A stretch of 39,286 bases of DNA from the IMG/VR virus record IMGVR_UViG_3300014957_000001. The stretch is one strand, 5' to 3'. The translations under genes and the position numbers were made by a program. The DNA is from a virus. The stretch's first letter is position 1, and the number at the start of each line of letters is the position of its first letter. Below, one piece after another: positions 123 through 34,282 of the stretch. The notes beneath the pieces were generated by a model that saw only the letters and a list, made by a program, of their open reading frames with translations, was not told the origin of the DNA and did not search any database.

Positions 123-2252
123 TTATTCAATATCATATTTAGCACCAGATGGTGCGGTTACTTTAAAAGGCTTCCTGCTTTCTTTTTTTAGTTCAAGTTC
201 TTGTTTTTTAAGTTCATGTTCTGCAAGTTTTAAAGAAGTATCAACCTGTCTATTCTGCATATCCCCTGCCATTTGCATCTTTACAACATTTTCATTGCTT
301 GAAATATCTTTCTCCTTCAACATCAATTCTGCAATCTTAACTCTACGCTCAAAGTCTTTACCCTCATTATCTTCGTTTAAATTGTTCGATAATGACGATA
401 AAATCTTAGCTTTTACAACATCTGGTGCAAGTTGTGCCTCAGTTGCCGCTTTTTGTGCTTCAGCTTGAGTCTTTTGAACATCAGCTTGTTTCTGTTGCAT
501 ATCAAGTGCCATTGCTTGTTGTTGCATTTGAGCTTGTTGCGGGTCAGGTTGTGATTGTTTGCTCATTTGCTCAAGCATTTCAATCTTATTATGCAAAGAT
601 GAATTCTCAATCACACCTTGCATCAGAATTGGTGTCAATGGAGAGTCTTTCCCTAAAGTTTGTATCAGGAAGGCAAGTTGTTTTTGCTCGTATTCACGGG
701 CAATAATACCTAATGTAGCCATTGGAACAAACTTAACATCAATAGCAGGATAACGTTCAGGGTCAAACTGCATATACCGCCATGTTGCCTTGTAAATAAA
801 CGGGATTAAGAATTCTTCCTGAAAATTTACTAATGTTCTCTTGTACTTCTTAATCATGGTAGCGGTAGCCATATCCATATTGCTATCTCTCGATACTTGA
901 GAGACTTGACCGCTAGAATCCATTGTTCCAGAAGCCATTAAGAGCATGCGTTCAAACTCTTTGCTGGTTTCCATTTGTACGCCATCACTAGCACCAAACT
1001 TGAACGGAAACATGATTTCTTGTGGATTTCCGTTAACCATTACATTCTTGCCAGCAGCAACTTCAAACTTGAATCCACGCGGAACTCTAGTTGCATCCAT
1101 TCCCATCATTGGGGCAGTAGTCAATGCAATAGAATCAAGATGCGATCTAATCGAACCATCTATAGCAGCCTGCATATTAAGTGTTTTTTCTGCTGTACCA
1201 CGTCCCAATATCCTGTTAGGCACTGTATCTGCCTGATAACAGATAATTGGCCTATCTTGCATCATATATGGTGATTCTTCAGCCTTTATGATAGCAGCAC
1301 CATTAGCCACTACAATAATGGCCTCTACCATATCCTCGTAATCTTCAAATTCATCACGAATATATGGTGAAGATTCGCCTAAAATATCCTCAATTTCTTC
1401 ATCTTCTTGATTTAAATACTCTTTTGGAACAAGTCCATAATAGGTAAGCAAAAGCACCTTATCATCACGATAATCTACTGTTTCTTGTGTTGCTTCTAGC
1501 GAGTTGTCGGTATAAAGAGTAGAAATATCTATATCACGATACTTCCCGCTTTTAATACCAGAGATTACTTTATGAATTGAAACGTATTTTTCAACAGCGA
1601 CACCCAAACAGTCATCAACAGACGTGCCATTAGGGTCAAATAGGAAGTTATTTGGATTTACAGGGGTTAAACGTACTGAAATACGCTCTTTTTCACCTAC
1701 ACCATATGCAGCAATTTGATTGTCAACTGGAACTTGCATTGGTTTATACTGCTTTTGAGTAGAAACAGTAATTTCACCTATTCCTGTTCCATAAATCTCA
1801 GCTAATAATGAGATACTTTCAATAGATTTCCTGATCTTATCTTGATCGAAATCCTCTTTTAGCTGGTTTTTTATCTTTTCTACGTCAAGTTTTGTTCCAT
1901 TTGCATCTACAACATCATCTTTTATGTCAAAATACTCACCTTGACCAAAAATGGCTTCCATGATCTCGGCATGACGTGTTTCGATTGCTTGTTGTGTTGC
2001 AGGAGAGACAATCTTGCTTCTTTCGGACTTTTTAGTCTTGTCAGAATCTTCAAACTTACCACGAAAATTACGCTCATACTTCTTCCAGTCATCAGAATAG
2101 TTCTGATCTCTGAAATCACGCCATTTATCTGTATGAGAAACAATAAAGTTTAGTAGTTCTTTATCATTTTCAGTTGGTTCATAGTATTTTTTACCTTCAG
2201 GTTCAAAAATATCTATAAACTCAGGCGTTGTTTCATCATGATTAATAATCAT
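123..2252 (-). CDS. Portal protein (putative)
   Basis: 709-aa ORF directly downstream of terL in the same operon; size and position are typical of a portal. It has a long Q/E/K-rich helical C-terminal tail. There is no motif-level proof without an HMM search. Confidence 0.7.
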   Translation of the reverse strand: MIINHDETTPEFIDIFEPEGKKYYEPTENDKELLNFIVSHTDKWRDFRDQNYSDDWKKYERNFRGKFEDSDKTKKSERSKIVSPATQQAIETRHAEIMEAIFGQGEYFDIKDDVVDANGTKLDVEKIKNQLKEDFDQDKIRKSIESISLLAEIYGTGIGEITVSTQKQYKPMQVPVDNQIAAYGVGEKERISVRLTPVNPNNFLFDPNGTSVDDCLGVAVEKYVSIHKVISGIKSGKYRDIDISTLYTDNSLEATQETVDYRDDKVLLLTYYGLVPKEYLNQEDEEIEDILGESSPYIRDEFEDYEDMVEAIIVVANGAAIIKAEESPYMMQDRPIICYQADTVPNRILGRGTAEKTLNMQAAIDGSIRSHLDSIALTTAPMMGMDATRVPRGFKFEVAAGKNVMVNGNPQEIMFPFKFGASDGVQMETSKEFERMLLMASGTMDSSGQVSQVSRDSNMDMATATMIKKYKRTLVNFQEEFLIPFIYKATWRYMQFDPERYPAIDVKFVPMATLGIIAREYEQKQLAFLIQTLGKDSPLTPILMQGVIENSSLHNKIEMLEQMSKQSQPDPQQAQMQQQAMALDMQQKQADVQKTQAEAQKAATEAQLAPDVVKAKILSSLSNNLNEDNEGKDFERRVKIAELMLKEKDISSNENVVKMQMAGDMQNRQVDTSLKLAEHELKKQELELKKESRKPFKVTAPSGAKYDIE

Positions 2253-2269
2253 TCTATTTACCTTATTAT

Positions 2270-4390
2270 TTATATCCCGGTCATTTCATCTAATGGTTCA
2301 TAATCATCATAAGAGCTATGCGGTTGATATGTAGTCTCTTGAAGGTGGCTTATATAGGCAAGGGCATCCAAACAATTATGAACAAGAACTCCATCAGCAA
2401 AAAACTCATGCCTGCCTTCAACCATTAGGTCGTAAACGGGCACGTTTTTCTCTTGCAAGCCTTGCCTGTTTTCTGTTTGTGCATTCTCTACTACAAATTT
2501 TCTGGATTGACATTTTTGGCTTAAAATTATTCCCGCATTCACAACATTGCTTTTCAGGAAGGTCTCGCATGAGAGATCGTTTAGCATGTTCTCTGTGCCA
2601 AGCAATTCCTTCTGGAGATGAATGCCATTTTTTTGTAAGGTGTCTGATACTTTCCAAATGCCGCAAACTTTGTTCTGTTTTTCCTCTGAGACTTCGTTCT
2701 TCTCTATGCTCGACTTGATGTGCGGCACTTGATAGGCAGACAAGGTTGGAGATGTCGTTGTTTTCTGAATTCCCGTCTGCATGGTGTACATGGTGTCCAT
2801 CTGGGATTCTTCCATTATGAAATTCCCAAATGTCTCGATGAAGCGATCTTGGATTTTCCTTCCATTTCGAGTGGCTTGTATAGTATAACCTGTGGTTTCG
2901 TTGTTTAGCATTTGGATAGCGGTGATACAATTTTCCGTTAAATTCAATGGTTTCGCGCATGATACATCCTTTAATGAATGACATTCAATGATTATATCAT
3001 CGTCACTTAAAGAATCAAGACTTACCCATTGCCTATTTAATGTAAATATCTTATGTTCAGGTGTTGCTGTAATACCGTACCGAGTAATAACTTCTTTATT
3101 ACCTTTACACCATGCTTTTAATACCTTTTTAAATTCACCAGACCCAGTTAACACATAATCATCAGTAGTAACTTCAGATATACACTTTTCACCATTAAGA
3201 GTCATTATTAATGTGCCGGCAGGGAAGCAATCATCGTGCACTCTTGGTGATGGGAATCCTATCATTTCGCGCTTAATCTCATCCCAATTCTCATCTTCAT
3301 TGAATACAATCCTACCATGCTCTAATAACCCTTGCAATGCGTATACTATCCTATTCTCTTTTGCAATACCACCAGTAGAAATTGAATGTATATGTGCAAA
3401 TACTTGGTTCTTACGCATTAAATCTTCCAAATAAGGAAGTACAGCTCTCATTAAAGCACCTTTTTCTATCCCAATCGCCAAAGGTTTATGTGTTCGTATT
3501 GCCATTAACACTCTAACCGCCGATTCTCGTACATCCCACCTTCCATAATCAATTTTCTGCACCCACCAATGACCATTCTCATAAACTCTAACTACTGCTA
3601 TTGCAAAATAGTCAAGATTGCTCTTTTTACCTGTTTCAGTAGTAACTCCAGTATAACCAGAAGGATCAATGGCAATATAAGTAGCATATGAGCCAAGTGG
3701 TGCTTTACCAGTTTTTAGCCACTCTATTCTTAGTAAGTTAGATCCTGCTGTATCCCATGATGCCTCATACTCTCTAAAGAACTCAGCACTGCCCATGGAC
3801 TTCTTAGCAGCTTCAATTTCTGATCTCTTGATATAAGGATTATCAGCAGTAGTGAACAACCATGATTTCCATTCAGGATCATCACCATCCTGACCTCTGT
3901 CAAATATCTTACGGAATTCAACTGCTTCAGGTTCAGGCGTACCAATAAACAATGCACCACCTTCCATATCCGACAAAGATGGTCTTATACTACTTTCCCA
4001 AGTCCCATCCTTAATATCCTTCATTTCATCCAGAATCGCATAGAACAGTTTCTTACCTCTTAACCTGTCTGGCTTGTCAGCACCACGAATCTGTATTTTT
4101 ACACCGTTCTTTAAAGTTATATCACCATCATTGATATGCGCTTTAGCAATAAGCGGTTCTGCAAGCATCATTACCAAGTCCCACATCAAGTCATATGCCA
4201 TCCCCTGAGTAGGTGCTACATACATCACCCTAGCATCCATTGAAGGGCATTGTAGAGCCTTTGTAATCAACATTACAGCCGATAACCGAGTCTTACCACA
4301 TCGTCTACCAGCAACAATCACTTTGAACCGTGTATCGTCAGTATAGACAGTTCTCTGCCACGGGGTTAGATCAAACTTTAACTCAGCCAT
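2270..4390 (-). CDS. terL: Terminase large subunit precursor, interrupted by an in-frame intein (mature TerL ~421 aa)
   Basis: Walker A-like AGRRCGKT near the N-terminus and Walker B-like FYAILDE. The nuclease-type motif is reconstituted after intein removal (SPRVHDD / CLDALAYI). The gene lies between the terS-like gene and the portal. Confidence 0.9.
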   Translation of the reverse strand: MAELKFDLTPWQRTVYTDDTRFKVIVAGRRCGKTRLSAVMLITKALQCPSMDARVMYVAPTQGMAYDLMWDLVMMLAEPLIAKAHINDGDITLKNGVKIQIRGADKPDRLRGKKLFYAILDEMKDIKDGTWESSIRPSLSDMEGGALFIGTPEPEAVEFRKIFDRGQDGDDPEWKSWLFTTADNPYIKRSEIEAAKKSMGSAEFFREYEASWDTAGSNLLRIEWLKTGKAPLGSYATYIAIDPSGYTGVTTETGKKSNLDYFAIAVVRVYENGHWWVQKIDYGRWDVRESAVRVLMAIRTHKPLAIGIEKGALMRAVLPYLEDLMRKNQVFAHIHSISTGGIAKENRIVYALQGLLEHGRIVFNEDENWDEIKREMIGFPSPRVHDDCFPAGTLIMTLNGEKCISEVTTDDYVLTGSGEFKKVLKAWCKGNKEVITRYGITATPEHKIFTLNRQWVSLDSLSDDDIIIECHSLKDVSCAKPLNLTENCITAIQMLNNETTGYTIQATRNGRKIQDRFIETFGNFIMEESQMDTMYTMQTGIQKTTTSPTLSAYQVPHIKSSIEKNEVSEEKQNKVCGIWKVSDTLQKNGIHLQKELLGTENMLNDLSCETFLKSNVVNAGIILSQKCQSRKFVVENAQTENRQGLQEKNVPVYDLMVEGRHEFFADGVLVHNCLDALAYISHLQETTYQPHSSYDDYEPLDEMTGI
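2375..3229 (-). mobile_element. Intein (285 codons, TerL residues 388-672) inserted in the nuclease motif
   Basis: Cys1 in CFPAGTLIMT (block A), TATPEH (block B, T-x-x-H), VYDLMVEGRHEFFADG (block F), VLVHN followed by Cys+1 (block G). Boundaries were placed by codon arithmetic from the ORF start at 4390. Confidence 0.85.
2418..2960 (-). CDS. HNH homing endonuclease, nested inside the intein in the +2 frame relative to terL
   Basis: His-Asn-His motif HHVHHADGNSENNDISNLVCLSSAAHQVEH and a C-terminal Cys4-type CCECG...CSREC. AAAGGA lies 6 nt upstream of ATG 2960 (alternative ATG at 2984). The ORF lies wholly within 2375-3229. Confidence 0.85.
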   Translation of the reverse strand: MRETIEFNGKLYHRYPNAKQRNHRLYYTSHSKWKENPRSLHRDIWEFHNGRIPDGHHVHHADGNSENNDISNLVCLSSAAHQVEHREERSLRGKTEQSLRHLESIRHLTKKWHSSPEGIAWHREHAKRSLMRDLPEKQCCECGNNFKPKMSIQKICSRECTNRKQARLAREKRARLRPNG

Positions 4391-4841
4391 TACTTTCTAT
4401 CACATTCAACTCTGGTCGAGCATCACCAATAACAATAGTAAAATTAGTACCACCAGTACTACTCATCCCACCATCAGACTTATCACCCCACTTAACCCTA
4501 TCCAACTTGGATGCTATCTTCATATAATGCTCAGACTGCATCCTGACCAACGAAACCTCCTCAGGTTCAGCATTCTCAACCAGATTAGTAGCCTTCCACT
4601 CCAATACATCAGCTCTTGCTCTACCAGCCAATGCAATAGCATCAGGACAGTTTAACTCAATCCAGCCACGTAAGACTACATACGGAACTCCAAACTCCTC
4701 CTTAGATATGTCAGCAGGGTTATCACCTTCAGCTAACCTCTCTACCAGTATATCTCGTATGAAGTCATTGCCTTTAGATGCTACCAGATCATCTAATAAC
4801 TGATAACCAAGTAGTTTTAGTGGTATTAACTTATCACTCAT
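4383..4841 (-). CDS. terS: Terminase small subunit (putative)
   Basis: 152-aa ORF whose stop overlaps the terL start. It has an HTH-like DISKEEFGVPYVVLRGWI and a C-terminal pattern RARADVLEWK...KIASKLDRVKWGDK typical of TerS families. Confidence 0.6.
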   Translation of the reverse strand: MSDKLIPLKLLGYQLLDDLVASKGNDFIRDILVERLAEGDNPADISKEEFGVPYVVLRGWIELNCPDAIALAGRARADVLEWKATNLVENAEPEEVSLVRMQSEHYMKIASKLDRVKWGDKSDGGMSSTGGTNFTIVIGDARPELNVIESNG

Positions 4842-4852
4842 GTTTAATTAAA

Positions 4853-5041
4853 TTAAAACGTATCCGACAATACAATATTATGTATATGATTACCACATAC
4901 AGAACACATTAATAATGGACAACCATTTTCTTTTTCTTTGTAAACAACAAAAGTCTTATTCCCACATGACTCACAACCTAAAATAGTTAAGTCGTCTTTA
5001 ATTTCAACTTTAGAACCACTAAAATTTATAACATCACCCAT
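4853..5041 (-). CDS. Small zinc-ribbon protein
   Basis: 62 aa with CESCG...CSVCG (two CxxC pairs); packed between the HTH gene and terS. Confidence 0.55.
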   Translation of the reverse strand: MGDVINFSGSKVEIKDDLTILGCESCGNKTFVVYKEKENGCPLLMCSVCGNHIHNIVLSDTF

Positions 5042-5043
5042 GC

Positions 5044-5235
5044 CTATAACCTACCATCTCTACTCTTTATACGCTCATCATTCAACATCAAAAAGTACTT
5101 AACCCTATTCGCAGGTACTACATCTGCATTCTGCCATCTACACCATGTCGCAATAGATACATCTAACTGCTTTGCAGCCATAGCCAATGTCAACCCTAAT
5201 CTCTCTCTTAACTTCTTTAATTCTTTACCAGTCAT
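5044..5235 (-). CDS. XRE-type helix-turn-helix DNA-binding protein, first gene of the leftward late operon
   Basis: MTGKELKKLRERLGLTLAMAAKQLDVSIATWCRWQN is a classic HTH_XRE pattern. AAGGAG lies 7 nt upstream of ATG 5235. The 94-aa long form in the track starts at a GTG with no SD. Confidence 0.7.
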   Translation of the reverse strand: MTGKELKKLRERLGLTLAMAAKQLDVSIATWCRWQNADVVPANRVKYFLMLNDERIKSRDGRL

Positions 5236-5484
5236 ATAATACTCCTTTTGAGTAGTATAACATAATGAGAGAGAGTGAGTGACTTTTTCTTGTGGAGAGG
5301 GGTGATAAGAAAAAAATTTCCCATACACGACTCACCCTCCCCCCCGTCGGATGTCACTATGAAACTATCAGCTCAGATCATCCACCATGATGACACATAA
5401 CTACCAAGATGAGCATGTAACCTCTCACATAACGAGAGACTATGTATGTATACGTATACAATCGCTGATATTTGTATTATTGCC

Positions 5485-5662
5485 ATTCATTTCAGAAATC
5501 CTTATTGTATTCATATACTTAACCTAAAAGCTGGTATATATTCAATATAATCAATAACTTAAGATTCGTTTTCAAAAACCTTAATGGATTCATACACTTA
5601 ACCTAAAAGCTGTATTCGTTTCAAAATTCACCAATAGAATCATACACTTAACCTGAAAGCTA
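5485..5662. repeat. Three ~49-bp direct repeats (5485-5533, 5564-5612, 5614-5662), core TTCATAYACTTAACCTRAAAGCT
   Basis: Aligned by eye: attcRtttYcaRaaa..ccttaWtgKattcataYacttaacctRaaagct. Copies 2 and 3 are tandem. Confidence 0.85.
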
Positions 5663-5818
5663 TAGATTGAGAGAGGTCGGGTAAGGGAGAGTGTAAAATA
5701 AAATATCCTTTATAATCAAATAGTTATAAATTTCAAAACGCCTTTATATACCTTTTTGCCAGAAAACCTGCGTTAATCACTATCCCCATGATTTCAAAGG
5801 CATATTTCAGAGAAAGTA

Positions 5819-5866
5819 TCTTTTAGGTTAACATGTTGATTCTAATAAGGTTTTTCAAAATGAATT
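5819..5866. repeat. Inverted (reverse-complement) copy of the 49-bp repeat unit
   Basis: The reverse complement reads aattcattttgaaaaaccttattagaatcaacatgttaacctaaaaga and aligns along the full unit of 5564-5612. Confidence 0.7.
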
Positions 5867-5963
5867 AGATTGAGTGATAAAAAGTGCCCATTCATTTTAA
5901 ATAACGCTAATGCAATCAATGAGTTAGTTAAAAAGCTAAACTATTAATATTTTTCTGATGGTT

Positions 5964-5980
5964 TATTGATATAGATCAAT
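5964..5980. promoter_or_regulatory. Operator-like site O1 (TATTGATATAGATCAAT), abutting the -35 of the early promoter
   Basis: Exact 17-bp repeat of 6027-6043. Contains the inverted half-sites TTGAT-N4-ATCAA. Confidence 0.5.
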
Positions 5981-6008
5981 TGACATATCTGGAAGCTCAT
6001 TAAAATAT
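5980..6008 (+). promoter_or_regulatory. Candidate sigma70-type early promoter for the rightward block
   Basis: TTGACA at 5980-5985. The -10 is either TAAAAT at 6001-6006 (15-bp spacer) or AAATAT at 6003-6008 (17-bp spacer). It lies about 55 bp upstream of the first plus-strand gene. Confidence 0.35.
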
Positions 6009-6026
6009 TAATTGTGCAATGTTGCA

Positions 6027-6043
6027 TATTGATATAGATCAAT
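6027..6043. promoter_or_regulatory. Operator-like site O2 (TATTGATATAGATCAAT), just downstream of the predicted start site
   Basis: Exact 17-bp repeat of 5964-5980, 63 bp centre to centre. Confidence 0.5.
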
Positions 6044-6063
6044 GTTTACCAGGGAGAGACAAA

Positions 6064-6282
6064 ATGCAGGCGAAGACACATTATATAAATGGTTGCAATA
6101 GATCACAGTCAAGCTGTGTTAACGGTAGCAAATGGGGCGTGAGTCTCGATAAGTTTTTAGGTGTTACTAATAGATGTGTAACTTGTGACAAGATAGTCAG
6201 TAAAGAATTGCAAGACTTTGAACCTATCCAAGAAACCAATTTGCTGGATAGAAACATAACAGGCATGGAGGCAGTTAAATAA
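6064..6282 (+). CDS. Hypothetical early protein (72 aa, Cys-rich)
   Basis: GGGAGAG lies 5 nt upstream of ATG 6064. The 6019 start in the track lies inside operator O2 and the promoter. Confidence 0.6.
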   Translation: MQAKTHYINGCNRSQSSCVNGSKWGVSLDKFLGVTNRCVTCDKIVSKELQDFEPIQETNLLDRNITGMEAVK

Positions 6283-6365
6283 TGATCACCTTAATATTTA
6301 CATTATGCGTAATAGCTGGCTGTTTAATAGGCCATAGAATTAATAAACTACTGAGAGGATTTTAA
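6282..6365 (+). CDS. Micro-ORF, 27-aa hydrophobic peptide (MITLIFTLCVIAGCLIGHRINKLLRGF)
   Basis: Its ATG overlaps the upstream stop (TAATG) and its stop lies 1 nt before the next ATG. It is below the 60-aa cutoff of the track. Confidence 0.4.
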   Translation: MITLIFTLCVIAGCLIGHRINKLLRGF

Positions 6366-6366
6366 A

Positions 6367-6783
6367 ATGGACTTAATCGCGAAACTACCCACAACAGACA
6401 GGAGCAACGCAAAACACCTTGACAAGGAAATAGTGCGTAAATATCACGTTGCTGGAATGCTCAACGGTGAGCTTGTATCTATCTTGACGGCGTATATCTA
6501 CATGTCACGCTCAGGCGATGGCGCAAGCCCTGTATATTGCGCGTTATGGGTACATGCTCCAGGCGTATGCTACACGTCAGGCAGGGGCAAGGCATCCGGC
6601 TATGGATATCACAAGTTCAGTGCGGGAATTGATGCAGCATTAACAAGCGCGGGTATTGAGTTGACCGATAGTAAGACAGGCAAAGTGGTCACAATTGACG
6701 GCGTAGGGGATAGCGCGATAGAAGACGCTTTCACCGCGATCGGCAAAGCGTGCGGCCTCGATAGCGTATTAATTTTAAGTTAA
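6367..6783 (+). CDS. Hypothetical early protein (138 aa)
   Basis: GAGAGGA SD. Visibly more G+C-rich than its neighbours. No family recognised. Confidence 0.7.
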   Translation: MDLIAKLPTTDRSNAKHLDKEIVRKYHVAGMLNGELVSILTAYIYMSRSGDGASPVYCALWVHAPGVCYTSGRGKASGYGYHKFSAGIDAALTSAGIELTDSKTGKVVTIDGVGDSAIEDAFTAIGKACGLDSVLILS

Positions 6784-6804
6784 CCGACTAAGGAGAATTA
6801 AAAA

Positions 6805-7176
6805 ATGAGCAACCAAATAAACAATACGCAAGACACTATCGACAGCCGCGAAATAATAGACCGCATTGAAGAACTGGAAGGCATCGAAAACCCAAGCAAC
6901 GAAGAAGCGCAAGAATTAGCAATCTTGTTAAAAGTACAGGAGCAGGCTGAGGGTTACTCAGACTGGGAGTATGGCGAGACCTTGATAAGGGAATCGTACT
7001 TTACCGATTACATCAAGGAACTGATTGCCGATTGCTACTCAATGCCTAAGGAGTTTGAATCCGGCGCGTGGCCTTGGCGGCATATGACGCTCGACTACCA
7101 AGCCGCAGCGGATGAAGCAGAATACGACTATACGCGGATTGATTTTGACGGCGTGGATTACTTAATCAGGAGCTAA
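6805..7176 (+). CDS. Strongly acidic hypothetical early protein (123 aa)
   Basis: AAGGAG SD. Many D/E residues (IDSREIIDRIEELEGIENPSNEEAQE...). Confidence 0.7.
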   Translation: MSNQINNTQDTIDSREIIDRIEELEGIENPSNEEAQELAILLKVQEQAEGYSDWEYGETLIRESYFTDYIKELIADCYSMPKEFESGAWPWRHMTLDYQAAADEAEYDYTRIDFDGVDYLIRS

Positions 7177-7177
7177 C

Positions 7178-7273
7178 ATGCAAAACTTTATAAATAACTG
7201 GGTTGCACCGTTTCTATTTGGCGCAATTGTCGCAATACTGTTTGTTGTAGCTTTATTTTTCCCAATTAAATAA
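7178..7273 (+). CDS. Micro-ORF, 31-aa single-TM peptide (MQNFINNWVAPFLFGAIVAILFVVALFFPIK)
   Basis: ATG lies 1 nt after the upstream stop. Hydrophobic core. Below the track cutoff. Confidence 0.45.
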   Translation: MQNFINNWVAPFLFGAIVAILFVVALFFPIK

Positions 7274-7288
7274 CCGGAAGGAGACAAA

Positions 7289-7459
7289 ATGACTGAGGAT
7301 CAAAAAGCATTTGAAGCGTGGATGTCAAATAACGGCGAATACCCAAGAGCCATTGCAAAAAATAATGATGGCTTATATAGTTTAATGCAAACTTTCATAC
7401 AATGGGCTGCATGGGAAGCAGCTTGCGAATATAAAACCACACAAAAGGAGATAAAATGA
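7289..7459 (+). CDS. Hypothetical protein, 56 aa (MTEDQKAFEAWMSNNGEYPRAI...)
   Basis: GGAAGGAG SD. Its stop overlaps the next start (ATGA at 7456-7459). Below the track cutoff. Confidence 0.6.
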   Translation: MTEDQKAFEAWMSNNGEYPRAIAKNNDGLYSLMQTFIQWAAWEAACEYKTTQKEIK

Positions 7460-7737
7460 AAGAACTATTCGACGTAAAAATATCAGCACAGCGCAATCTT
7501 GAGCGCGCAGGCCGTACATTCTCGATTACAGCATGGGAATATCGGAAAGCAATCAGAAATAATGCAGAACAGAGAGTTGTCGACGCTTTACGATATAAAG
7601 TAGCCGAACATCGCGCAGATATGGAAGACGCTGCCGACCATCATGAACGCATCATGGAAAAATGGTATAAATTCCGTCCTGCTGATCGTCATAAAATCGG
7701 TATTGTATTAATGCCGTCCGATGTATATGTCAAATAA
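7456..7737 (+). CDS. Hypothetical protein (93 aa)
   Basis: AAAGGAG SD and ATGA coupling to the upstream ORF. Confidence 0.7.
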   Translation: MKELFDVKISAQRNLERAGRTFSITAWEYRKAIRNNAEQRVVDALRYKVAEHRADMEDAADHHERIMEKWYKFRPADRHKIGIVLMPSDVYVK

Positions 7738-7749
7738 AAGGAGGAATAT

Positions 7750-8142
7750 ATGTCAGCAACAATAATGGCTGCAATAGCAACTACGCAAGCAGCATTGGCA
7801 ACTATCGGCGCACATAATGTGCAAGTTGCGCAATGCAAAGAATTATTGCCAATATTTAACGCTCAAACTGCAACAATTTCAGAAATACAAGAGTATGCTC
7901 AATGCGTCCAAATTCTATACCCAAAAGAATTAGGGGTGGATGTGATAATTGCGCTAAAAATCCTATTTATATTTGCATTAATTGGCATGTTGTTCGCCAT
8001 ATGGGGAACATGGAAAAAAGATCGTCAATTCGCAGAATTTTATGATTATATCATAATGGGTGTAATCGGATTTATTATTACACCATTTTTAATCTTGCTA
8101 TTAGCGTTAATTTGTTATGGCATATTCTGGTTATTCTCATAG
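7750..8142 (+). CDS. Integral membrane protein (130 aa, about 3 TM segments)
   Basis: AAGGAGG SD. Hydrophobic stretches IIALKILFIFALIGMLFAIWG and IIMGVIGFIITPFLILLLALICYGIFWLF. Confidence 0.7.
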   Translation: MSATIMAAIATTQAALATIGAHNVQVAQCKELLPIFNAQTATISEIQEYAQCVQILYPKELGVDVIIALKILFIFALIGMLFAIWGTWKKDRQFAEFYDYIIMGVIGFIITPFLILLLALICYGIFWLFS

Positions 8143-8150
8143 GGGCAATC

Positions 8151-8375
8151 ATGAACAATATTGAACAAGTAATTGATACACGTGTACATTTTAGATCAAG
8201 CGTTCCAAAATGCTCCACTGCGGAACAGTACGAAAGCTGGAAACAGATAGCACGGCTGGCAGTCCCTAATAAATATGGATTCTGTGAGGATTGCACACTA
8301 GATTTTCAATCTAAGATGATCCGCGCTCGTAAATGCGAAAACCCGCATGTGATTATTACAGATATTTCCGATTAA
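8151..8375 (+). CDS. Hypothetical Cys-containing protein (74 aa)
   Basis: ATG 8151 (MNNIEQV...) follows AGGGG. The 8112 start would overlap the membrane-protein gene. Confidence 0.55.
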   Translation: MNNIEQVIDTRVHFRSSVPKCSTAEQYESWKQIARLAVPNKYGFCEDCTLDFQSKMIRARKCENPHVIITDISD

Positions 8376-10555
8376 TCCCTTCCAGTGGCGCGTATGCTTT
8401 GTTGTAGCTCTCGCGCCTCTTGTTGCCTCTGTCTTGTTCTTTCGGCTTCCTCTTGGTAGATTAAATGCGCCCGTGGATTTACTGTAAATTGTGTAGGCCT
8501 TTTGGCTGTTCCATCTATGCCATTCTTTGGTATCAACCAAGAAAATTCTATCATCCTGTCTAGGCAATCGTGCATAACCGATACTGGCTGATCTCGCCAA
8601 GCATACGGGCCATCCTTGTGCATCTGGGTCGTAGTTGTTTCGGTCAGATTCTCAGCTACTAACCATGCCGCTAAAAACTTCGCGCCCTTGCTAGAGTCAG
8701 TCTCACAGACGACTGATTCATAAAATGCAACCATGTGCTGCAATATATGTTTAATCATATAATCAACAGCTTGTTGCGCTGTTACTTCCGAGACTTCTAT
8801 ATTGGTTGGATGAATTTTTCCTGCACAATCAACAACATGGAAGCATAGCATCATCCTTGCAATTATCCCTTCCCACTTTCCGAGTGCGGTTATAAATGCC
8901 TTGCTTATCATGCCGCTATTAATAATCCGGTAGATATACTTAACAGCATCCCTGTAAATAAAATAAGCCGGGACGCTTAACCTAACATAGTAATCATTAG
9001 GTTTTAAATCTGCTATATATTCCAACACTTGCCGCCATGCGTCCGCATAATCTGTATTGATAGCACGTTCAGCAGCTTGCCCACCTTTTTGGTTAGATGT
9101 TACGATTAAAAACCTTTGAAGCAATCCGTCATCATCCATTTTGCTTGCTAGTGCTGCCAATTTTGCAGGCTGTATCCCGCCGGATATGGTCGCGCTCCAA
9201 TTCTCTATGATATATGAGCCAGCTCCGACCTTATCAATCTGCATTTGTCCACCATTGTAAGCACGTAACCATAATGGCCTATCAGCGTTAACCCCATATG
9301 CTTTGTAAGCGTCCATAGAGCCGATCCAAGCCGATATTTCGTCATTGTGTATATATACACCTGACGGCATATCCTGCAACGCTCTTTCGAGTCCTTCACG
9401 GGTTAAAACATCACATTTTATACGCCGCCTTTCATATCGCTCAGGCTGTTTTGGTTCTTCAACCTCTGGATGCTTTGAATCAAGACTTGCAATGGTGTAT
9501 TTTTTTAATTGTGCCGCATATCTTGCATCGGCAATTTCTTGTTTTTGCTTGATAATTGCGTCGTCTTTCGCTACTTTTTTTGCAATAGCATCAACAGGTT
9601 TTAATACTGCATCCATGATCGGGGATTTTTTAGCCGAAGATTCGCCGCAACAGATAGTCCAAAGCCTGGCGGATTCATAAAATCCGTCCTTAACCTTTAA
9701 CTTTATTCTGTCATCCAATAAACCAGCTACAGCAGATAATGCAATAATTCCACCAAAAGCTGGATCAGTATTAATAACTTCAGCCAAATCAAACACATGG
9801 TCATCAATCACCTTTGGCAATAACCCGCGCTTTAACGGTTGAGCGGCAAATTTTTCAAACAAATTAATTGGTTCAGGATATTTGTCTGCGGTAGCCAAAT
9901 ATTCTTCAGGTAAAGGCGGTGGTATTCTTGGTTCAACTATCGGTATGGTATAGGTGTATATTCTTGACTCTAACCATTCACTCATTGTTTCACTATTCCA
10001 ATTACCAAATTCATTTGATAAATTCCAATCATCAGGCATTCCGTCAACATTGACAATCTGCACATTGCATTCTAATTTAGTTAGGATATAACCTATTTTT
10101 TGCAATGACCGGATGCCTTCATCGTTGTTAATAGGCAATAAAATTACATTCCTACCAGATAGATAATCCCATTTAATTGCTCTTGCAGTATTAATTCCGC
10201 CCCGCCAAGCCAAGCAAACCATATCAGGCAATAATTCTCTGGCTATATCAGCAGATTCTTCTCCATTACATACAAACACGGTTTTATCTGGATATTTTGC
10301 AAGCAAATCAAGACCATATAAAGGTCTTTGCCCCCATGCCCAACCGTAATAGTTCCAGCTTTTGCGTACATTTTCACTTCTTGCGCCATATGCAAATTCT
10401 TTATATGCAATCCCAGTGGCGGTTTTATACTTTGCAACATACCCAATACACTCGCCTTTTGGTGAGTTATACCGCCAATATTGCATTGTCTTGCCCATTC
10501 TAGGCATAGAGTCTTTAGGGGCTGGATAATTTAACCATGGAGCAGGATTAGCCAT
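8372..10555 (-). CDS. Replication protein: Toprim-type primase domain fused to a DUF3987/helicase-like domain
   Basis: Toprim-like VFVCNGEESADIA and ILLPINNDEG. C-terminal pattern ESSAKKSPIMD...IHNDEISAWIGSM...GGIQP...DGLLQRFLIV resembles DUF3987. Confidence 0.7.
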   Translation of the reverse strand: MANPAPWLNYPAPKDSMPRMGKTMQYWRYNSPKGECIGYVAKYKTATGIAYKEFAYGARSENVRKSWNYYGWAWGQRPLYGLDLLAKYPDKTVFVCNGEESADIARELLPDMVCLAWRGGINTARAIKWDYLSGRNVILLPINNDEGIRSLQKIGYILTKLECNVQIVNVDGMPDDWNLSNEFGNWNSETMSEWLESRIYTYTIPIVEPRIPPPLPEEYLATADKYPEPINLFEKFAAQPLKRGLLPKVIDDHVFDLAEVINTDPAFGGIIALSAVAGLLDDRIKLKVKDGFYESARLWTICCGESSAKKSPIMDAVLKPVDAIAKKVAKDDAIIKQKQEIADARYAAQLKKYTIASLDSKHPEVEEPKQPERYERRRIKCDVLTREGLERALQDMPSGVYIHNDEISAWIGSMDAYKAYGVNADRPLWLRAYNGGQMQIDKVGAGSYIIENWSATISGGIQPAKLAALASKMDDDGLLQRFLIVTSNQKGGQAAERAINTDYADAWRQVLEYIADLKPNDYYVRLSVPAYFIYRDAVKYIYRIINSGMISKAFITALGKWEGIIARMMLCFHVVDCAGKIHPTNIEVSEVTAQQAVDYMIKHILQHMVAFYESVVCETDSSKGAKFLAAWLVAENLTETTTTQMHKDGPYAWRDQPVSVMHDCLDRMIEFSWLIPKNGIDGTAKRPTQFTVNPRAHLIYQEEAERTRQRQQEARELQQSIRATGRD

Positions 10556-33241: not shown

Positions 33242-34282
33242 TTAAGCTGGAACTATGATAGGAATTGAACCATAGTCACGTAATTCAGCAGTTCCAAAGA
33301 TACAGTCAGAGGTAACCAAGTACCCAAGATACTCTTGCTTGTATTGTTGTTGCGTACGGATAGCTTGAGCTTCAGCTAATACCATTGCATCAGGATGCAC
33401 TAACAAACATGCACGATACTTGGTATCAGTTGGAGATGATGTATTCCAGTCAACAGTCAATGCAAAATCATCTGTGTATGAAGCACCTGTTGGCGCAGTA
33501 GATGAAAACGTACCAGATTGCGTACCAGTAACACTATTAACGTGAATCCACGGACACAAACTTGATGCATAAACTTCCACGCCATACAAGTTACCAATAC
33601 GACCAGTGCGGATAGTTTTCCCATCACCGATGAAAGCCTGTTCAGTAAATCTTGCAATACCACGCAATGTTCTGATTACAGTAGGAGGAACAACAAGTCC
33701 ACATTCAGCAGTATTAACATCTGAATCCTCAAGTGTTTGCATTGCCTGTCTTAATCCAGCATCAGTTAATGCAGTTCCATTACCTGTATTAGAGTTGGCA
33801 GCACCAGAGAACAATGTGGAGCCATCACCACCGATAACACCTTTTTCATACAAGGCAGCAGCAGATACAGTTCCACCTTGAGCATATGCGCCAAGTTTAT
33901 GTAGTTCTGCATCAATTCTTTTTGCTAAGGCATAACCAGCATCTTTTGTATAGAACCTACGCATACCATCCAATGCAAGAAGATCAGCAATATCTTCATA
34001 CAACTTCGAGTATTCATAGTGTTTGTTAATGCTAATTGTTATTTCGTTAGCGGTGTCTGCAATCAGTTTAACTTGAGCATTTACAGCTTTTTCAGAGGCT
34101 TCGCCACGTCCGGGATTAGGGCGATGGATTACATCACCCTTATGTTTTTGATGTTGAAAGACTTCAACAAGATTGCGCATGACGGTCTTTGCTTCATAAG
34201 TAGCAATAGCCTCGTCTTGCCATATTTCACCAATCCATTTATCGGCAACAACACGTCCAGTATTATCAGTTCCTAGTCCCAT
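33242..34282 (-). CDS. Major capsid protein
   Basis: 346 aa, directly after the scaffold-like gene and before the terminator. AAGGAG SD. The N-terminal pattern is as in T7/N4-type HK97-fold capsid proteins. Confidence 0.8.
   Translation of the reverse strand: MGLGTDNTGRVVADKWIGEIWQDEAIATYEAKTVMRNLVEVFQHQKHKGDVIHRPNPGRGEASEKAVNAQVKLIADTANEITISINKHYEYSKLYEDIADLLALDGMRRFYTKDAGYALAKRIDAELHKLGAYAQGGTVSAAALYEKGVIGGDGSTLFSGAANSNTGNGTALTDAGLRQAMQTLEDSDVNTAECGLVVPPTVIRTLRGIARFTEQAFIGDGKTIRTGRIGNLYGVEVYASSLCPWIHVNSVTGTQSGTFSSTAPTGASYTDDFALTVDWNTSSPTDTKYRACLLVHPDAMVLAEAQAIRTQQQYKQEYLGYLVTSDCIFGTAELRDYGSIPIIVPA

Follow-up and report, generated by a model that had tools for sequence, protein, structure and literature searches.

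An intein of the phage terminase large subunit with an HNH endonuclease gene encoded out of frame between its splicing blocks

Out-of-frame endonucleases within inteins of the terminase large subunit (TerL) have been described in actinophages by Gosselin, Arsenault and Gogarten (bioRxiv 10.1101/2025.01.02.630785), who place the endonuclease in "reading frame 3 relative to the intein". In this preprint, the arrangement is called previously unreported, and the invasion of the intein by a free-standing homing endonuclease is proposed. The present analysis concerns the terL gene of IMG/VR record IMGVR_UViG_3300014957_000001, a viral sequence of 39,286 nucleotides that was analysed at its full length and is referred to here as the window; this gene carries a class-1 intein with an HNH gene nested in the +2 frame. 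The two systems share the TerL host, the class-1 intein, a same-strand nuclease open reading frame (ORF) between the splicing blocks, the +2 offset and an intein frame that stays open. They differ in the nuclease, which is endonuclease VII-like (IPR004211) in that account, whereas the window encodes an HNH_3 domain with a zinc ribbon. Translation of the Keitabear intein gave the same +2 offset as in the window and a nuclease of the Endonuclease_7 type (CVDHDH...CN); BLASTP detected no similarity between the window HNH and the Keitabear frame-3 product, and the similarity between the two inteins is marginal, only the last 21 intein residues being aligned. The set described in the preprint is confined to PhagesDB actinophages, whereas the window family extends to viruses infecting many bacterial phyla as well as archaea; no PhagesDB-type phages are found among the tblastn matches listed for the window HNH. 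Frame-specific substitution ratios, conservation of start signals and a fractured derivative, all presented below, are not reported in the accessible part of the preprint. The initial annotation of the window had considered the arrangement as not described for inteins, and this claim fails: the general arrangement is already described in the 2025 preprint, and what is added here is a different nuclease family, a different intein lineage and a far wider spread.

Three further systems are close to this locus in one respect or another. Arsenault et al. (Genes 2025, PMC11855218) reported a hidden third-frame HNH with a ShiLan domain in an insertion of a mycobacteriophage DNA methylase. As in the window, a third-frame HNH lies in an insertion that is stop-free in the frame of the host gene, and the same translation question arises. 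That insertion has no intein splicing domains and is for this reason thought to stay in the mature protein, whereas the window has canonical splicing blocks; moreover, its HNH starts with GTG, has no ribosome-binding site (RBS) and is proposed to use leaderless-type initiation, whereas a Shine-Dalgarno (SD) sequence and ATG are usual here. Dassa et al. (2009, PMC2677866) described fractured genes in which split inteins flank a free-standing homing endonuclease gene (HEG), and their model predicts the invasion of an intein by a HEG. The window resembles these genes in having a HEG with its own signals at the endonuclease insertion point of the intein, with ends overlapping the flanking coding regions. 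In the fractured genes, however, the host gene is split into two ORFs and the nucleases are of the GIY-YIG or Vsr-like type, whereas the window terL is continuous over 706 codons, so that its intein should be cis-splicing. With canonical bifunctional inteins the window shares the same splicing blocks, the position of the nuclease DNA between blocks B and F and a presumed homing logic; unlike in those, the nuclease is not part of the intein polypeptide. At the level of the nuclease itself, the I-HmuI-type nickases of phage group I introns (PDB 1U3E) are comparable, being likewise elongated multi-module monomers with the Pfam HNH_3 domain, and this type is both the top sequence-profile match among nucleases and the top fold match for the window HNH, although weak (E about 0.2). 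I-HmuI differs in its helix-turn-helix and its intron carrier, the C-terminal part of the window family consisting of a helical region and one or two Cys4 zinc ribbons and the carrier being an intein. In literature of incomplete coverage, no description of an HNH_3/zinc-ribbon TerL intein family was found, nor any mention of an intein in work on phiCDHM19, phiCD119 and TJE1.

The terL precursor ORF occupies positions 2270..4390 (this and all other features of the gene lie on the minus strand) and, according to the ORF list, encodes 706 residues, comprising a 387-residue N-extein, a 285-residue intein and a 34-residue C-extein followed by the stop codon. Its product gives Pfam matches to Terminase_6N, Terminase_6C (weak) and Intein_splicing and corresponds to PHROG 2, terminase large subunit, at 4e-39. 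The N-extein (3230..4390), with the TerL ATPase and most of the nuclease domain, ends in ...FPSPRVHDD; the C-extein (2270..2374), CLDALAYISH...TGI plus stop, begins with the +1 Cys nucleophile. The 285 codons between them (2375..3229, TerL residues 388-672) run from Cys1 to a terminal His-Asn, with Cys at +1, and match Intein_splicing and Hint_2. The Intein_splicing match (PF14890) scores 43.9 bits against a cut-off of 35.8 and is split by a large insertion, intein residues 33-285 being aligned with profile positions 35-155. A near-identical relative from another sample, L090 (IMGVR_UViG_3300047457_000387, 39,326 bp), has identical frame structure. The N-terminal splicing domain comprises residues 1-86 (2972..3229). 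This domain contains blocks A and B (CFPAGT..., TPEH), of which Cys1 (CFPAGTLIMT) and T56-P-E-H59 are invariant in intein alignment A3, and it matches the NrdJ-1 intein 8ubs. The C-terminal splicing region, residues 262-285 (2375..2446), contains blocks F and G, VYDLMVEGRHEFFADGVLVHN, with the hallmarks VYDLMVEGRHEFFADG and VLVHN before the +1 Cys. It is kept across the family, blocks F/G ending in His-Asn in 81 members with C or S at +1.

In the AlphaFold2 (AF2) prediction, the intein frame is folded only at its two ends: residues 1-86 form beta strands with block pLDDT (predicted local distance difference test) values of 50-84, and residues 265-284 form strands with pLDDT 66-81. The alignment used for this prediction consisted of six matches from a word-indexed protein search with the 285-residue intein, which is too shallow for a survey. 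The intervening residues 87-261 (2447..2971) are the stop-free translation of HNH-coding DNA, an unstructured and unconstrained linker with pLDDT 26-35 (put at below 30 between blocks B and F), no secondary structure and no domain match in the TerL frame. Taking into account blocks A, B, F and G, the +1 residue, the profile threshold and the intein-less alleles described below, the element is a class-1 intein of the Hint fold. Splicing of the TerL precursor is to be expected, considering that the blocks are intact in an essential gene.

The putative homing-endonuclease gene lies in the +2 (= -1) frame of terL, at 2418..2960. It encodes 180 residues from an ATG at 2960 to a TGA at 2420..2418, and an SD-like AAAGGA (2967..2972) is found 6 nt upstream of this ATG; an alternative upstream ATG at 2984 gives an ORF of 188 residues (2984..2418). 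The longer product matches Pfam HNH_3 (PF13392) with E=2.3e-16 and 59.6 bits (cut-off 24.8) and PHROG 15471, "HNH endonuclease", at 3e-22. The catalytic motif HHVHHADGNSENNDISNLVCLSSAAHQVEH (HNH residues 56-85, 2706..2795) coincides with the region aligned to HNH_3. In an alignment of 60 sequences, H59, H60, N68, N72 and H81 are invariant, and D62, N67 and H85 are nearly so (90% or more). The same alignment shows invariant columns for all four cysteines of the C-terminal Cys4 zinc ribbon, C139-x2-C142 ... C156-x3-C160 (2481..2546), a part of the protein that is weakly matched by zinc fingers of the FCS and YacG types and by NinG. The AlphaFold model of the HNH frame has a mean pLDDT of 93.4, with strands at residues 56-60 and 73-77 and a helix at 78-91. 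Family, location, sporadic distribution and purifying selection together suggest that the protein is an HNH homing endonuclease.

The initial annotation had read most of this anatomy from the letters, and it holds in detail. The intein boundaries at 2375-3229 are exact, all splicing hallmarks (Cys1, TPEH, block F, VLVHN, Cys+1) are in place with the profile score above its cut-off, and removal of the intein does restore RVHDD-CLDALAY, the insertion point now being checked against intein-less relatives with RVHDD-LLDALAY. The TerL frame between blocks B and F is indeed featureless, and the 180-188-codon +2-frame ORF, with its Cys4 ribbon and AAAGGA, is an HNH_3 gene; profile searches of both frames return Intein_splicing and Hint_2 in one and HNH_3 in the other. 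The proposal of a free-standing-type HNH gene overlapping a mini-type intein is supported by these domain matches, as well as by the recurrence and the HNH-frame purifying selection described in the following paragraphs.

The two frames are open simultaneously to an extent that exceeds chance, as had been suspected from the start. When the synonymous codons of the HNH ORF were permuted, the terL frame remained stop-free in 0.17% of 20,000 trials; when codons were resampled from the genome's own usage, this fell to 0.01%, with a mean of about 7 stops. The third frame of the overlap contains 14 stops, and free-standing HNH homologues contain 4-20 stops in the frame that is open here. A count of 0 stops in 14,423 overlap codons comes from members that had been chosen for being nested, and is thus in part circular; the figures that carry information are the nesting counts given below (76/80 and 34/57), compared with a per-sequence chance of about 0.03-0.1.

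Which of the two frames is under selection is readily apparent from the comparison of the window with L090, whose terL differs at 73 of 2121 nt (3.4% divergence) with both frames kept. In the TerL frame, 40 synonymous and 0 nonsynonymous changes are found in the N-extein, 13 and 2 in the N-terminal splicing domain (TerL nt 1162-1430, window 3229..2961), and 4 and 0 in the C-extein. Within the overlap, the same frame shows 2 synonymous and 12 nonsynonymous changes, whereas the HNH frame shows 11 synonymous and 3 nonsynonymous. The pattern extends to 22 family pairs, for which the ratio of nonsynonymous to synonymous substitution rates (dN/dS) in the overlap is 0.08-0.29 in the HNH frame and 0.75-3.5 in the TerL frame, and the TerL frame shows the same amino acid identity as the non-coding third frame. 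Only one real protein, the HNH, is therefore encoded by the overlap. Selection changes frame exactly within the overlap, and the AlphaFold models agree. Of the earlier suggestion that both frames are selected, the part concerning the TerL frame stands as avoidance of stop codons, and the part that does not stand is amino-acid-level selection on both: purifying selection at that level acts on the HNH frame alone, the TerL frame being only kept stop-free. The same data bear on the possibility that the HNH ORF is a decaying, non-functional remnant, open by chance or hitch-hiking, with selection on the terL frame only. The homing cycle does predict decay of the endonuclease after fixation, and one locus (L052, see below) displays it. 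Nevertheless, the low dN/dS of the HNH frame, its excess of synonymous changes between the window and L090, the invariance of catalytic and zinc-binding residues and a model with pLDDT 93 all speak against a relic in the window, and we consider this explanation quite improbable.

As to how the HNH protein would be produced, 72 of 73 distinct nested members possess a start codon (63 ATG, 7 GTG, 2 TTG) shortly before the conserved N-terminal strand, and 45 of the 73 have an SD-like motif at the proper distance. A stop in the HNH frame lies at a median of 9 codons upstream of the start, and within 3 codons in 12 members. At the other end, the HNH stop falls at a median of 16 codons before the intein C-terminus, within or beside block F. 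In the window, the open stretch of the HNH frame starts exactly at ATG 2984, with a TGA directly upstream and no SD-like motif at this position. The alternative is recoding, in which the HNH would be made as part of the intein/TerL polypeptide by programmed -1 frameshifting, with or without a shift back. It could draw on the HNH frame being the -1 frame of terL, on the ability of SD-like sequences to stimulate frameshifting and on the 28 of 73 members that lack a clear SD-like motif. However, the window stretch that would have to be entered opens only at ATG 2984, immediately after a TGA, and direct reading of the sequence between 2984 and 2960 revealed no X_XXY_YYZ slippery heptamer. In the family, the upstream stop precedes a conserved start that is ATG in 63 of 73 members, and the HNH stop lies inside block F, so that a frameshifted product could not complete the intein. 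Recoding is thus regarded as extremely improbable, and fusion by frameshifting appears from the reading frames to be ruled out in most members, the window included. Since a stop in the HNH frame usually lies just upstream, the HNH is probably made by independent internal initiation rather than frameshifting, which fits the start, SD and stop data. An RNA hairpin masking the RBS or start of the HNH was considered and rejected, the predicted fold being no better than that of shuffled sequence (z = 0.34).

Far from being peculiar to the window, the layout is the usual condition in a large family of TerL inteins. The best tblastn matches of the HNH protein are homologues at +2 inside uninterrupted terL coding sequences, found in four phages from GenBank: Acinetobacter phage Highwayman, Tetrasphaera phage TJE1, Rhodobacteraceae phage LS06-2018-MD07 and C. 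difficile phage phiCDHM19. Their inteins are inserted in the same conserved region of the nuclease motif, and the HNH proteins can be aligned over their full length, with 33-42% identity. A profile scan of IMG/VR returned at least 559 relatives, of which the best 80 loci were examined; in 76 of these 80 the HNH is nested in a host ORF of 600-1,180 codons (or in one cut off where the contig stops), a count to be read with the bias of the top hits towards nested loci, since the profile was built mostly from nested members. Seen from the HNH, the host ORF always lies in the +1 frame, and the sampled host proteins are TerL of both the Terminase_6 and Terminase_3 families. In one-genome-per-species assemblies, either genomes or metagenome-assembled genomes (MAGs), 34 of 57 loci show the nested layout, and more distant matches are free-standing genes. 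Nested loci occur here in Streptomyces and Corynebacterium (Actinomycetota), Chloroflexota, Bacteroides (Bacteroidota), Planctomycetota, Nitrospiraceae and CPR bacteria, as well as in archaeal MAGs of Thermoplasmatales, Woesearchaeota and Thorarchaeota. The frame conservation in homologues that the initial annotation wanted to see compared is thus present throughout, and among the 270 best protein matches (best 120 plus best 150) there is none in which the HNH is joined in frame to the intein on both sides.

These results also decide on an assembly or sequencing artefact, in which an ordinary in-frame intein HNH would have been displaced by two compensating indels near 2985 and 2415. The window is an uncultured, metagenome-type sequence, and a short JGI contig, L135, has its N-intein in frame with the HNH, both of which would suit such an error. 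On the other hand, both frames are preserved in L090, which comes from another sample and has 73 differences in 2121 positions; the +2 offset recurs in four sequenced isolates, in 76 of 80 IMG/VR loci and in 34 of 57 genome loci; in many members the HNH start is directly preceded by a stop in its own frame; and a fusion of the HNH to both intein halves is absent from the 270 best protein matches. The artefact is effectively refuted already, its probability being close to nil.

Several loci deserve separate mention. L135 (JGI contig Ga0451923_1259692, 1206 nt; protein P0225) carries the N-extein and N-intein in frame with the HNH and the C-intein at +1. It is the only partial in-frame case among the 270 matches, one base shifted from the family norm. 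This singleton contig is not a canonical intein and may reflect an error in sequencing, a pseudogene or another type of fractured arrangement. The closest protein-level HNH relative in the collection (P0019, 51% identity) is located in L086 (ENA ERZ25039490 contig_67228, 2551-4639), which was left unused, as terL is broken there into several frames, probably in an indel-rich assembly; protein P0007 was left out because it has no contig location. In L087, a prophage of Streptomyces sp. (JBJDOP010000001.1, 427700-436374), the nested HNH (224 aa, 4001-4675) is annotated and terL is not, even though the 774-codon TerL-plus-intein frame (2496-4817) is open across it; in the GenBank phages the situation is the opposite, terL being annotated and the nested HNH not.

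With regard to mobility, the intein is absent from 37 of 38 full-length TerL relatives from IMG/VR (40-79% amino acid identity), L090 being the only other carrier; L129 was set aside owing to its truncated ORF. The intein-less relatives read RVHDD-LLDALAY or close variants, HDD|L(L/I/V/P)D, as compared with the RVHDD-CLDALAY restored by excision from the window TerL, and in the intein-less allele of L091 the insertion site is AGAGTTCACGACGAT^TTGTTGGACGCCTTGGCATAC. The intein-bearing allele therefore has Cys (2372-2374) in place of Leu, and the +1 Cys nucleophile was apparently brought in together with the intein. The register of insertion varies between subfamilies, HDD|C versus HDDxxDA|C. In two IMG/VR loci, L073 (2997-5519) and L076, the same intein with nested HNH is found at another, Walker-B-like site, '..IIIVDDP|CFAPE..', in a host protein that is TerL by PHROGs (phrog_38, 1e-47), which suggests that the intein-HNH unit has switched sites within terL.

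Free-standing homologues of the HNH were observed in Acinetobacter phage BP10 (L001, 3016-3657; 43% identity), immediately upstream of terS, and in Pseudomonas phage PAE1 (L088, 2265-2882; 32% identity), between terL and the next structural gene; the family seems to favour the terminase neighbourhood even outside inteins. This raises the question of whether the nested HNH could be a domesticated packaging factor, that is, an accessory nuclease working with the terminase in the manner of HK97 gp74 and kept in place for co-expression. Such a role would be in line with the BP10 and PAE1 genes directly beside terS or terL, with reports of HNH nucleases next to terminase genes (PMC3592412) and with the long-lasting purifying selection on the gene. 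It is difficult to reconcile with the other recovered TerL relatives (72-79% amino acid identity and below), which lack the intein-plus-HNH unit, so that the unit is dispensable and sporadic, and with L052, where a broken HNH accompanies an intact TerL frame. The domain is, moreover, HNH_3, the family of I-HmuI-type homing enzymes, and the presence of the unit at a second TerL site (the Walker B region in L073) fits mobility. We therefore consider a packaging function unlikely.

Derived states of the layout were also encountered. In L052 (IMG/VR, 3334-3639), a premature stop leaves 102 codons of the HNH frame open within an intact 1,113-codon TerL frame, and the sister loci L045 and L047 have a full HNH; judged by its reading frames, L052 is a decaying endonuclease within a still-open intein. 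In Vibrio phage 1.245.O (L089; NC_055736.1, record 3334-9963), stops have been acquired in the terL frame, and the gene is fractured at the same site, HDDA|C, into ORFs at 161-3037, 2923-3633 and 3572-3889. Here, gp14 consists of TerL-N and the N-intein, followed by a stop, with the homologous HNH ORF in the +2 frame; gp15 consists of Met, the C-intein (..VVVHN|C) and the C-extein, in the terL frame. The gp14 protein additionally contains a second, LAGLIDADG-type intein in its ATPase domain. This phage thus corresponds to a fractured gene in the sense of PMC2677866, with the HNH family of the window in the same relative frame. The same tblastn match, with 24% identity and a Hint-domain/terminase annotation, was obtained for Vibrio phages 1.238.A and 1.238.B, 1.245.O being the one inspected.

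The window itself, of about 39 kb, has the appearance of a complete phage genome that is circularly permuted. The gene order runs from a possible terS (4841..4383) through terL and the portal gene (2252..123), across the window ends, towards the major capsid protein gene (34282..33242), and helicase and primosomal genes are also carried. A blastn search with terL gave no match among 50,697 phage genomes, so that no close cultured relative of the window phage is apparent; the closest cultured TerL relatives have 32-38% identity.

Taken together, it is highly probable that this terL gene bears a class-1 intein with a complete out-of-frame HNH gene, from which a spliced TerL and a separate HNH are produced and which homes into empty alleles. 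The proposed mechanism is as follows. The intein interrupts terL within the conserved nuclease-domain motif HDD|xDAxxY, its splicing modules, of about 86 aa at the N-terminus and about 24 aa at the C-terminus, being encoded in the terL frame, and between them lies a complete same-strand HNH gene (HNH_3 domain, helical region, Cys4 zinc ribbon) with its own SD sequence, ATG and TGA. Ribosomes translating terL would read the HNH DNA as a stop-free, disordered linker of 175 residues, which would be discarded with the intein upon splicing of the precursor to yield a TerL of 421 residues, and internal initiation at ATG 2960 would provide the free HNH protein. Upon mixed infection, this nuclease would introduce a nick or cut close to the insertion site of a terL allele that lacks the intein, and recombinational repair would copy the intein, the nuclease gene and the Cys+1 codon (replacing Leu) into the empty allele. 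The relative frame would be locked, because any one indel within the overlap would abolish the essential TerL and an in-frame HNH would need two simultaneous indels.

What is shown comprises the anatomy of the locus, its recurrence, selection that differs by frame, the start signals and the polymorphism in presence or absence. Several points nevertheless weigh against this explanation. Splicing, internal initiation with production of the HNH, the specificity of the nuclease, the cutting of empty terL and homing are steps that we infer. Foldseek comparison of the HNH model with the PDB gave only weak matches (top I-HmuI, E = 0.21, and Cas8-HNH; range 0.2-0.9), which is attributed to the elongated multi-module shape. 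About 40% of the nested members (28/73) lack a clear SD-like motif, and no significant RNA structure was detected at the internal start (3020..2930; minimum free energy -13 kcal/mol, z = 0.34). The IMG/VR survey, as mentioned, favours nested loci among its top hits, and a disordered linker of 175 residues between the splicing modules could slow splicing. As regards the broader history, the evidence tips modestly towards the window being a member of an old, very widespread, frame-locked dual-coding TerL intein family, in which the endonuclease gene has remained separate and overlapping while sequences diverged to about 30-35% identity, in viruses of many bacterial phyla and archaea.

The locus provides a natural example of a long same-strand overlap, of about 540-770 nt, in which one frame holds all the amino acid information and the other is selected only to stay open, because its product is spliced away. 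Gene callers report TerL or the HNH, never both, and if the proposed reading is correct, annotation pipelines systematically miss one of the two genes. Protein engineering and phage-genome editing could take an interest in a mini-intein that accommodates an arbitrary insert of 175 residues and is paired with a compact HNH, whose target may be a conserved terminase motif. Contiguous, decaying and fractured states coexist within one family, several of them in culturable phages (Highwayman, phiCDHM19, TJE1 and Vibrio phage 1.245.O), which makes it a testable system for the model of "splicing first, endonuclease invades later" and for the question of how split inteins arose. If the proposed reading is correct, the window would represent a living intermediate predicted by models of intein evolution, namely a free-standing HEG in a mini-intein that later becomes an in-frame bifunctional intein or a fractured gene, and the fractured terL of the Vibrio phage, with the same HNH in the same frame, would be its derived state.

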